A stretch of 64,000 nt of DNA from Thermococcus sp. JdFR-02. GTDB lineage: Archaea > Methanobacteriota_B > Thermococci > Thermococcales > Thermococcaceae. Position numbers and translations under genes: made by a program. The stretch covers positions 96,001 through 160,000 of the forward strand of contig MTLP01000042.1 in assembly GCA_002009975.1 (NCBI GenBank). The letters are read 5' to 3'. This document shows positions 51,467 to 52,880 of this stretch, one piece after another (position 1 is the first letter of the stretch; every line of letters begins with the position of its first letter). The notes under the pieces are model-generated. The model did not search any database. It worked only from the letters and a program-made list of their open reading frames with translations, and had not been told where the DNA came from.

Positions 51467-52617
51467 GTTAGCTCCCTCCTAATTTCTCGGGAAAGTTTAA
51501 ATTGTGCATCTTTCGGCAATTTTTTCAAATTGATATATTCGCCACACTCCTTTCGTGTGAGTAAAAGTTTATTTAATTTCAGGAAATCTTTCTCTGTTTT
51601 TATATATGTAGAAAGTGCTAATAGAACTAGATTATCTCTCCAAATATTTTGTAACTCGGGCCATAAATTGTTTATACCTTCCTCAATATGTCCATATGCT
51701 AAATTTAAATACGGAGTTGGCAAAATATATCCCTCTGCACTGATCGTCAGTACTACAGAATTTAAATATGGCCCTATAACTATGTGCTCTGTGGGATCCC
51801 CAAAAGTTATTTTCAATGGATAATGTCCTGAATTCTCATTGATCCAAGTTATTAATTTTGAGTATTGTTCTTCTGTAGGTATGAGATTTAGATGTCTTTC
51901 ACTTTCTGGGACAAAGTACATAGATCTAACCTCAAATACTCCAAGATCCAATGCTAGTTCAACTGTATTAGGGAAATCGTGAATATTCAAACTGGTTGCG
52001 CAAAATGCTACAGCCGTGTTTATGTTATAGTCAACTAAATTTTTTATTGCATTAACAGCTTTATTAAATGTTCCTTTACCTCTCAACAGATCCATAATTT
52101 CAGATTTTGATCCATCTAACGAAATCTGTACGCTACCGATATTTAATTCAGACAACTTAGAGGCAAATTTATCTGTAATTAGTGTTCCATTACTCACAAA
52201 ATTCACTCCAATGCCTTTTGAATTTGCATATTCTATAATCTCAAAGAAATCTCTATGCAATGTTGGCTCTCCTCCGCAGAGGCATATACCTAAAACCTCT
52301 AACTCTGAGAGTTCGTCTATTATCTTGAACACATTATCTTTACAAAGGCTTGGAGCTACGGTTCTTTGGGGAGCAGCTAGATAACAATATGGGCATTTGA
52401 GATTACATCGGTAGGTAATGTCAATTGCAGCAAATATTGGCCCTTTGATATTATCTATCCAAGACTTCAACTTTTTGCGAGTTTCGATATATTTTATCCA
52501 TGCCTCAAGAAATCCTGGGATCTGTCCCACCCTAATGGGTTTTCCTCTATTTGGAAGAATGACCTCTAAGAGCTCATTAGTCGCATTGTGTAGCTCTTCT
52601 AAAAAAGAAATGTGCAT
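51463..52617 (-). CDS. radical SAM enzyme without SPASM cysteines (candidate peptide epimerase)
   Basis: ITYRCNLKCPYC, GGEPTL, SNG, QISLDG; C-terminal ISAEGYILPTP has Thr where SPASM/Twitch has PC; TAATG overlap with precursor. Confidence 0.88.
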   Translation of the reverse strand: MHISFLEELHNATNELLEVILPNRGKPIRVGQIPGFLEAWIKYIETRKKLKSWIDNIKGPIFAAIDITYRCNLKCPYCYLAAPQRTVAPSLCKDNVFKIIDELSELEVLGICLCGGEPTLHRDFFEIIEYANSKGIGVNFVSNGTLITDKFASKLSELNIGSVQISLDGSKSEIMDLLRGKGTFNKAVNAIKNLVDYNINTAVAFCATSLNIHDFPNTVELALDLGVFEVRSMYFVPESERHLNLIPTEEQYSKLITWINENSGHYPLKITFGDPTEHIVIGPYLNSVVLTISAEGYILPTPYLNLAYGHIEEGINNLWPELQNIWRDNLVLLALSTYIKTEKDFLKLNKLLLTRKECGEYINLKKLPKDAQFKLSREIRRELT

Positions 52618-52880
52618 TAAGAGGCACCTCCGATATTTTTAAACTTACGTATGTCGTAGGAGTCAAAGATCTCTTTAACTGTTGGTATTGCTACAGTAGC
52701 TATAACTAAGACCCAAGCTGCTGCTGCCCAAACAACCGCAGCATAAGCATAGCCGACTAAGTTCAGAATGGCAGCGTGGTTAACTGCTGCTGCATTATTA
52801 ACAGCCACTACATTATTAGTGCTTATAGTAATGTCTGCGGGAGTGCCAACATCACCACCAACAGGGGGCACGTAGCTCAT
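52617..52880 (-). CDS. RiPP precursor B, 87 aa, Val/Ala-rich with Nx5N ladder
   Basis: SD GGAGGTGA; MSYVPPVGGDVG leader; D10, D16, N22, N28, N34, N40 at exact 6-residue spacing. Confidence 0.85.
   Translation of the reverse strand: MSYVPPVGGDVGTPADITISTNNVVAVNNAAAVNHAAILNLVGYAYAAVVWAAAAWVLVIATVAIPTVKEIFDSYDIRKFKNIGGAS

Follow-up and report, generated by a model that had tools for sequence, protein, structure and literature searches.

A predicted radical S-adenosylmethionine peptide system in Thermococcus, with two precursor peptides and a polar residue at every sixth position in one of them

The locus and its two precursor peptides

In this report we focused on a 64,000-nucleotide stretch of the genome of Thermococcus sp. 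JdFR-02 (contig MTLP01000042.1, positions 96,001 to 160,000; hereafter the window), and within it on an operon of seven minus-strand genes. These encode, in this order, two small peptides (precursors A and B), a radical S-adenosylmethionine (SAM) enzyme, a PqqD-like recognition element (RRE) for ribosomally synthesized peptides that are post-translationally modified (RiPPs), a membrane protein, a permease of the ABC-2 type (ABC, ATP-binding cassette) and an ABC ATPase (Table 1). The first five genes overlap stop to start, the stop of A and the ATG start of B sharing the bases ATGA, while the membrane protein and permease genes overlap by 29 bases. A first-pass annotation of the window had taken B for the precursor of a radical SAM-modified peptide, and this reading is borne out, since relatives of B adjoin orthologous enzymes and its leader motif recurs in them. 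B is a genuine precursor peptide of a radical SAM peptide-modification system.

The two precursors have only their first dozen residues in common (Y-x-P-P-x-G-x-D-x-G). Precursor A has no ladder of the kind described below for B, and its C-terminal end consists of one hydrophobic segment and a charged tail; it is also highly conserved, with 6 clusters of 72–100% identity in a set of 5.8 billion proteins, and its codons differ from those of its G005 counterpart at 14 synonymous and 6 nonsynonymous positions out of 51. By hydropathy both A and B resemble single-pass membrane peptides. In B, the 19-residue Kyte–Doolittle windows above 1.6 begin at residues 36–54, with a maximum of 2.41 at residues 47–65, which suggests that residues 36–68 would span the membrane as an unmodified helix. 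The charged tail that follows is similar to that of B from genome G016 (KEIFELYDPRKL). The ESM Atlas gave no usable feature match, and its model of B, a single long helix of low confidence (predicted template modeling score 0.30), is uninformative. Neither precursor matches a Pfam or NCBIfam family at E up to 0.1. There is no cysteine in B and none in A, which excludes thioether chemistry of the sactipeptide or ranthipeptide kind.

Table 1. Coordinates in the window of the operon genes and of the features of precursor B.
Feature	Position	Strand	Evidence or detail
Precursor A (59 aa, GTG start)	52877..53056	-	same N-terminal motif, Y-x-P-P-x-G-E-D-x-G
Shine-Dalgarno-like GGAGGTGA, six bases 5' of the B ATG	52887..52894	-	read from the DNA
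Precursor B (87 aa)	52617..52880	-	relatives adjoin orthologous enzymes in other genomes
B residues 1-12, MSYVPPVGGDVG, YxxP-type leader/recognition motif	52845..52880	-	conservation and modeled RRE interface
Hexad ladder, B residues 10-46	52743..52853	-	D10 to Y46 at spacing 6, plus N23, N29, H35
B residues 36-68, Ala/Val/Trp-rich hydrophobic segment	52677..52775	-	hydropathy
B residues 69-87 (K69-S87), charged tail KEIFDSYDIRKFKNIGGAS	52620..52676	-	translation
Radical SAM enzyme (384 aa)	51463..52617	-	PF04055, E 2.5e-26
Discrete PqqD-like RRE (134 aa)	51062..51466	-	ScmD, E 7e-4; AlphaFold fold
Membrane protein (161 aa), weak bacterial-PH-like C-terminal part	50580..51065	-	bPH_5, E 0.0087, below cut-off
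ABC-2 permease	49787..50608	-	profile and tblastn matches
ABC ATPase	48871..49785	-	profile and tblastn matches

A six-residue polar period in B and its relatives

The central finding of this study is that residues of B recur at a spacing of exactly six, from D10 through D16, N22, N28, N34 and N40 to Y46, with a second, adjoining register formed by N23, N29 and H35. Both registers had been pointed out in the first-pass annotation and were reproduced from the translation by script; its account of the rest of the peptide was equally accurate, as the positions between the rungs are filled by V, A, I, L, G, T and S and are followed by a hydrophobic stretch containing Y and W and by the charged tail. 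From D16 to I65 the core is free of proline, and its residues are small or β-branched. We assessed chance with three shuffling schemes of 50,000 shuffles each (whole peptide, residues 1–46 and residues 13–46). A D/N ladder of at least six rungs arose in 23, 26 and 39 shuffles, respectively, when any spacing from 2 to 12 was allowed, and in 3, 3 and 8 shuffles for spacing 6 only. The ladder in B is real and beyond chance. Tandem Repeats Finder (minimum score 30) detected no DNA repeat between positions 52500 and 53100, so the ladder is not a recent array of 18-base duplications. Because D10 is part of the conserved N-terminal recognition motif, outside the variable core, the ladder of the core proper begins at D16 or N22.

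Conservation of the period in homologues had been proposed as a check, and most relatives of B passed it. We compared polar pair counts with 5000 shuffles in 10 precursors, for the residue sets D/N/E/Q and D/N, leaving aside P0001 (97% identical to the window peptide), G098_B (which resembles G005_B closely), L034 (almost the same as G068_B), the G065 copy with its frameshift, and every A-type peptide. At spacing 6, there were 42 D/N/E/Q pairs against 12.9 expected and 23 D/N pairs against 4.6 expected, in both cases with a Z score of 9.5 and 0 of 5000 shuffles as high, figures that overstate the support since the relatives are not independent. Spacing 12 reached a Z of about 4, and the sole other spacing to stand out was 11, in the D/N set only (Z 3.1). 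No enrichment was seen at spacings 2, 3 and 4 (Z −1.0 to −1.9) or at spacing 7, which argues against an ordinary amphipathic α-helix or β-strand. Taken singly, 7 of the 10 precursors were significant (p <0.03), distant ones included, the other three being G005_B, L029_P1 and L033_P1.

How the period is kept differs between relatives. G016 B follows the register of the window peptide and is one hexad shorter (D10, D16, N22, N28, N34 and Y40); the same register is found in L033_P2 (Q10, D16, N22, N28 and N34), where the enzyme is only 47% identical, and G068 B has N21, N27, N33 and D39. The period is also retained in G110, L029_P2 and L032_B, with rungs that are mainly Asp, Glu and Gln. In these comparisons the period signal appears in at least three separate lineages, with differing residues, and the six-residue polar period is conserved in most relatives and probably functional.

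Could such a period be unrelated to the enzyme? It might reflect an unmodified, all-L β-solenoid of the left-handed hexapeptide-repeat kind: Asn ladders are common in β-solenoids, and by eye the hexads loosely fit a pattern [aliphatic]-[N/D/E]-x-x-[small]-x. Alternatively, the period might be a neutral by-product of composition. We find either version scarcely credible. With E values up to 10 allowed, no Pfam family, Hexapep included, was matched by any of the 10 precursors, save for one irrelevant match at 0.31, although weak matches may be lost to the HMMER filters; a solenoid of just four to six hexads would not be stable, and the segment is strongly hydrophobic; and the shuffles exclude chance as the origin of the period.

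A 12-residue leader and a discrete RRE

The second line of evidence concerns the start of the precursors, which follows the motif M-x-Y-x-P-P-x-G-x-[DE]-x-G, in the B version M-x-Y-x-P-P-x-G-G-D-x-G. M1, Y3, P5, P6, G8, G9 and G12 are invariant in seven aligned B sequences, and the motif or a close variant is present in 14 of the 14 precursors found beside orthologous enzymes, the two in L033 being deviant. A putative partner for this motif is encoded in the operon itself. The 134-residue protein has, according to its AlphaFold model (predicted local distance difference test, pLDDT, 89.6), the winged-helix fold of PqqD-like RREs: its best matches in the PDB are TbiB1 with the TbiA leader (template modeling score 0.80 by target), another lasso B1 protein with leader, PqqD, and the RRE portions of NisB, TruD and MccB. 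The PqqD family of Pfam is matched by 3 of 8 RRE orthologues. Discrete RREs of lasso peptide systems are described in PMC13381572 as reading leaders of the form [Y/W]xxPx[L/V/I/F/A].

A model of the RRE in complex with B residues 1–50 scored 0.68, while the best of three controls scored 0.01; of the solved complexes, 58 of 80 attained the 0.68 mark, as did 2 of 110 mismatched pairs, although the score may partly reflect likeness to solved RRE–leader complexes. At least 46% of contacts were common to the runs, with a partner pLDDT of at least 45. On the B side the modeled interface comprises exactly residues 1 and 3–12, and on the RRE side residues 47, 50, 52–60, 63, 86, 88–89, 93, 97–98, 100–101 and 104, i.e., the β3 strand and the third helix; 8 of the 17 invariant RRE residues fall within it. 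The model thus supports binding of the leader by the RRE, without showing it.

That the N-terminal motif is the sole strictly conserved part of the precursors, and contains a Tyr and an Asp/Glu, also raises the question of whether the motif itself is the substrate. The enzyme might link, for example, Tyr3 to Asp/Glu10, following the logic of pyrroloquinoline quinone and mycofactocin, with the rest of the peptide a variable membrane anchor in which the hexad is structural. The single-pass appearance of A and B would suit this, and among the families closest to the enzyme core are MftC and PqqE, both of which have PqqD-like partners. However, MftC and PqqE need SPASM clusters, which are absent here, and in the complex model residues 3–12 are buried in the RRE cleft, where they would lie out of reach of the active site. 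A periodicity with a Z of 9.5 across lineages would, moreover, need an explanation of its own. We therefore regard modification of the motif as quite unlikely.

A radical SAM enzyme lacking SPASM cysteines

The cluster motif of the enzyme is CxxxCxxC (C71, C75 and C78). Among 20 orthologues these three cysteines and C112 are invariant and C114 is conserved in at least 90%; no further cysteine is conserved in them, so the cysteines of a SPASM/Twitch domain or of a second cluster are lacking. C112 and C114 lie in a C-x-C-GGEP motif, and the C-terminal domain has GDPxEH and P-x-P-Y motifs. Pfam matches the radical SAM core only. The NCBIfam models for MftC, ScmE, WgkB, StsB and the heme enzymes likewise cover no more than the core, at scores far short of their cut-offs and with matches that end near residue 270 (MftC, E 1.2e-36), and the best sequence match in the PDB, SkfB (E 1.1e-20), is again restricted to the core. 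In the AlphaFold model the mean pLDDT is 64.4, and the C-terminal domain, residues 274–323 included, falls below 50.

The first-pass annotation had offered aromatic crosslinks at the YAY and WAA motifs as an alternative to epimerization, and carbon–carbon crosslinks (cyclophanes) in the hydrophobic segment deserve consideration: Y and W are frequent there, Y46 aligns in all seven Thermococcaceae B sequences, and the best matches include the core of WgkB, a peptide maturase of the radical SAM/SPASM type. This alternative turned out to be weak. The aromatic-crosslinking maturases named in the family lists consulted (WgkB and DynA) are described there as radical SAM/SPASM proteins, whereas the enzyme here lacks SPASM/Twitch cysteines, and the aromatic positions are unconserved beyond the closest relatives, among others in L032_B and L033_P2, with just one Tyr, near the end, in G110. 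Since crosslinking would also leave the hexad ladder unexplained, we judge it very unlikely.

What the enzyme does instead can be approached by analogy. Proteusin epimerases carry the radical SAM cluster only, whereas EpeE/YydG has two clusters, and in both types a critical cysteine donates the hydrogen, according to PMC8326336. With the radical SAM triad alone and a conserved extra cysteine, the enzyme of the window resembles the proteusin epimerases, which makes epimerization our leading guess for the chemistry.

A sister clade of enzymes with 29–35% identity to that of the window (loci L035–L046, from the human gut and other metagenomes) shares C-x-C-GGE, GDP-x-x-H and S-P-Y, and matches no curated family above its cut-off. 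These enzymes are accompanied by proteins of 155–177 residues, and some also by a second enzyme of the SPASM type or by an RRE-like fusion; in L040 (2480–5097), a 74-residue Gly/Ala/Val-rich peptide with I-Y-E-P-P-S-I is found near the enzyme.

Similarities and differences with known systems

Comparison with described systems highlights both parallels and differences. With the β-helical proteusins (PoyA/AerA, with PoyD/AerD) the system shares a hydrophobic core of small residues and Asn at i/i+6. It would also share an iterative radical SAM enzyme with the SAM cluster only and a dependence on cysteine (as given for the proteusin enzymes in PMC8326336), and a membrane-active product, which is here a proposal. 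In proteusins, however, the leader is long and nitrile-hydratase-like or of the Nif11 type, the RRE is fused to the epimerase, and a D-Asn N-methyltransferase is present, whereas here there is a 12-residue YxxP leader, a separate RRE gene, no methyltransferase, a SPASM-like enzyme core and an archaeal host. Judged by leader type, RRE fusion, tailoring genes and the family matches of the enzyme, the ladder is the only hallmark of proteusins that is present.

The proteusin parallel invites a more specific reading, in which every second core residue is epimerized and the product is a polytheonamide-like β6.3 helix forming a channel across the membrane, with Asn at i/i+6 clamping successive turns and Tyr/Trp anchoring it at the interface. 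The statement on which this was originally built, that Nx5N repeats go with the β-helix of proteusins, is backed by PMC9060474, which places D-Asn25, 31, 37 and 43 on a single face of the modeled aeronamide β-helix. The proline-free core of small or β-branched residues (D16–I65) would suit such a helix, as would the SAM triad with an extra conserved cysteine, as in proteusin epimerases, and the enrichment of spacing 6 but not of spacings 2–4, which speaks against ordinary amphipathic structure. Several points are unfavorable. A nitrile-hydratase-like leader peptide (NHLP) or Nif11 leader is missing, as are a fused RRE and an Asn N-methyltransferase; the Glu/Asp/Gln rungs of G110, L029_P2 and L032_B fit poorly with an Asn clamp and would form an unfavorable lipid-facing carboxylate stripe; the second register (N23, N29 and H35) would fall on the opposite chirality class; and the G005/G098 lineage has no ladder. 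Epimerized and methylated AerA is, moreover, unstructured in polar solvent (PMC9060474), so the ladder alone makes no helix. On balance we think a β-helical channel unlikely. The same small chance is all we would give to the broader proposition that hyperthermophilic archaea have independently evolved a D,L-alternating, β-helical membrane peptide of the gramicidin/polytheonamide kind by means of a 12-residue leader and a SPASM-less epimerase unrelated to PoyD. Were it true, the every-sixth polar ladder would zip the turns together, and the core of about 50 residues would be long enough for a tetraether monolayer membrane.

The epipeptides of Bacillota (YydF/EpeX, with YydG/EpeE and YydHIJ) follow the same operon logic, i.e., a small peptide, a radical SAM enzyme, a membrane protein and an ABC-2 transporter, and share with our proposal a membrane-perturbing peptide and the epimerization of aliphatic residues. 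They differ in that EpeE has two 4Fe-4S clusters and the operon as described in PMC8326336 lists no separate RRE gene, and in that the precursors are dissimilar. For leader recognition the closest parallel is with lasso systems (TbiB1–TbiA and other B1 proteins), which have a discrete RRE of the same fold and a Tyr-x-x-Pro leader in the β3/α3 cleft, here as modeled; unlike in these systems, there is no B2 protease or lasso cyclase in the operon, whose modifying enzyme belongs to the radical SAM proteins. The most similar radical SAM cores belong to the SPASM/Twitch maturases SkfB, PqqE, MftC, ScmE and AlbA, of which PqqE and MftC also have a PqqD-like partner, but here none of the auxiliary-cluster cysteines is present and the precursors are free of cysteine.

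A residue at fixed spacing in the precursor of a radical SAM maturase is also implied by the name of the CefB “Cys-every-fifth” family (NF038107). By analogy with such a precursor, a periodic residue would mark iterative sites, although the spacing here is six rather than five, the residues are Asx/Glx rather than Cys, and the enzyme lacks SPASM cysteines. In our search of a limited set of papers, the sole radical SAM peptide system reported for Thermococcales consisted of subtilosin-like clusters identified by bioinformatics, with no modified product described, and nothing was found on the A/B family. These Thermococcus clusters (bioRxiv 10.64898/2026.07.27.741052) are similar in that they are radical SAM peptide clusters with an ABC component, but have Cys-containing SboA homologues and an AlbA-like enzyme, and are unrelated to A and B. 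These comparisons place A, B and their enzyme in what appears to be a new family within the RRE-dependent radical SAM RiPPs.

Distribution of the system

Close relatives of B are rare: one 97%-identical protein (P0001) was found in the set of 5.8 billion proteins, and 2 true relatives among 1.84 billion representatives. For the enzyme, there were about 25 clusters at E 1e-40 or better in the 5.8-billion-protein set, none informatively named, and orthologues are present, together with the operon core, in 10 of 97 Thermococcaceae genomes. A scan of genome contigs, with narrow patterns, returned five loci. In a metagenome scan, 3 of the 80 loci kept (L032–L034) were orthologous, the rest being other radical SAM enzymes of at most 35% identity. 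Besides these three contigs, the system was found on one 4.4-kb contig (L029) binned into a metagenome-assembled genome (MAG) of Thermotogota. The system thus appears confined, as far as searched, to Thermococcaceae-like hyperthermophiles, which grow near 80–100°C.

Related loci keep the gene order B, enzyme, RRE, membrane protein, permease and ATPase, with A optional. Two precursors are present in five distinct operon types (window, G005/G015, G098, L029 and L033) and probably also in L032, in which the start of the A-like open reading frame (ORF) is ambiguous, while a B-type precursor stands alone in four genomes (G016, G065, G068 and G110). Two loci deserve separate mention. The operon of L029 (82–4124) is complete, with two precursors, in what is nominally a bacterial MAG, through either a binning error or transfer between hyperthermophiles. 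G005 and G015 (L002 and L003), which count as different species, have identical translations of A, B, the enzyme, the RRE and the membrane protein, and flanking DNA that is not identical position for position. According to one source, an A-type precursor belongs to Thermococcus litoralis DSM 5473, where it bears the name of a hypothetical protein.

Other operon proteins and neighboring genes

The 161-residue membrane protein may serve in immunity or in handling of the peptide. It had a tblastn match in 2 of 8 related loci, the others having ORFs of 118–160 residues in the same slot, a comparison of slot position alone. Among the operon genes scanned, there was no methyltransferase or other tailoring enzyme of the proteusin kind, and no lasso B2 protease or Asn-synthetase-like cyclase. 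As a candidate leader protease we considered the 503-residue membrane protein at 47254–48765, and rejected it when tblastn found none in 8 related loci. This multipass protein, encoded on the minus strand next to the operon, has an extracytoplasmic part with G-H-G-S-P-Y-G and F-E-S-C-S-V-G motifs, which we take to recall clan CD cysteine peptidases, and a weak PorU-like match (E 0.033).

A divergent ABC pair with a winged-helix gene (53224–55307) was likewise considered as part of the system and rejected. Its permease is found in 27 of 97 family genomes, many of them without the cluster, and lies elsewhere in G015 and G016; since it occurs irrespective of the cluster, we treat the pair as a mere neighbor. 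This plus-strand group (ATPase, ABC-2 permease and a 94-residue winged-helix-like gene) flanks the cluster in the window, G110 and L032, and its permease has a second copy, 64% identical, in the same genome (contig C5). Further out (43086–45562 and 55326–57656), by names assigned by eye, are metal-related genes, with a heavy-metal P-type ATPase, an ArsR-like regulator, a pyridine-nucleotide disulfide oxidoreductase with a C-terminal Cys pair, small metal-binding-domain proteins and a DUF302-like protein, followed by Suf and thiamine genes.

A model for the system and its implications

We propose, with confidence only somewhat better than even for the whole chain from docking through iterative hexad modification to export, that B is one of two co-transcribed precursors of an undescribed RRE-dependent radical SAM RiPP system; our confidence in the observed and modeled parts is higher. 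Residues 1–12 of B would act as the leader, docking in the β3/α3 cleft of the separate RRE, which would present the proline-free, V/A/I/L/G-rich core to the radical SAM enzyme. There, the enzyme would abstract a hydrogen atom and a cysteine would return one, making epimerization the most likely outcome. Iterative modification in the hexad register is likely, with the enzyme presumably working repeatedly along the core in step with every sixth polar residue and creating D-centers that are either six residues apart or at alternate residues. The small membrane protein and the ABC-2 exporter may then take charge of the modified hydrophobic peptide, which probably forms a two-peptide pair with A, after which the product would act on membranes in the manner of an archaeocin.

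A number of observations weigh against this model. The proposed chemistry rests on analogy: the core of the enzyme is most like the SPASM-type crosslink makers (MftC, ScmE, WgkB and SkfB) and not like a known epimerase, and the YydG model (TIGR04078) has no match to it at E 0.01 or better and five weak matches elsewhere in the genome. An alternative role for C112 and C114, along with the invariant D274, E277 and H278, would be to coordinate a metal or a different cluster, in a region where the structural model is poor. The conserved operon core has no leader protease. In the G005/G098 lineage B has no ladder and the operon is intact, and there is no periodicity in the A-type peptides, L029_P1 or L033_P1, which indicates that the enzyme does not need the ladder. 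Decay is also evident. In G065, B is frameshifted by a one-base deletion relative to G016 (L020 5861–6069), with an intact enzyme; in G016, the enzyme is split (L024 10634–11720), with an intact B; in G068, the enzyme and the ATPase are both split (L023 5998–7181 and 8847–9765); and only remnants of the locus persist in G063 (L025). Such a patchy and eroding distribution fits an accessory, bacteriocin-like trait.

Across these closely related loci the decay is complementary, with B frameshifted in G065 and the enzyme split in G016.

Ordinary all-L secondary structure hardly accounts for a period that is kept while its residues change across lineages; the period points instead to a six-residue ruler for iterative modification, or else to a β-helical product. 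The system is compact and testable, with two precursors, an enzyme clade without SPASM cysteines, a discrete RRE with a 12-residue recognition motif, and an exporter; if T. litoralis DSM 5473 has the whole operon, it would be open to study in a culture-collection strain. Whether the ruler or the β-helix proves right, hyperthermophiles would contribute a new enzyme activity and a new scaffold.

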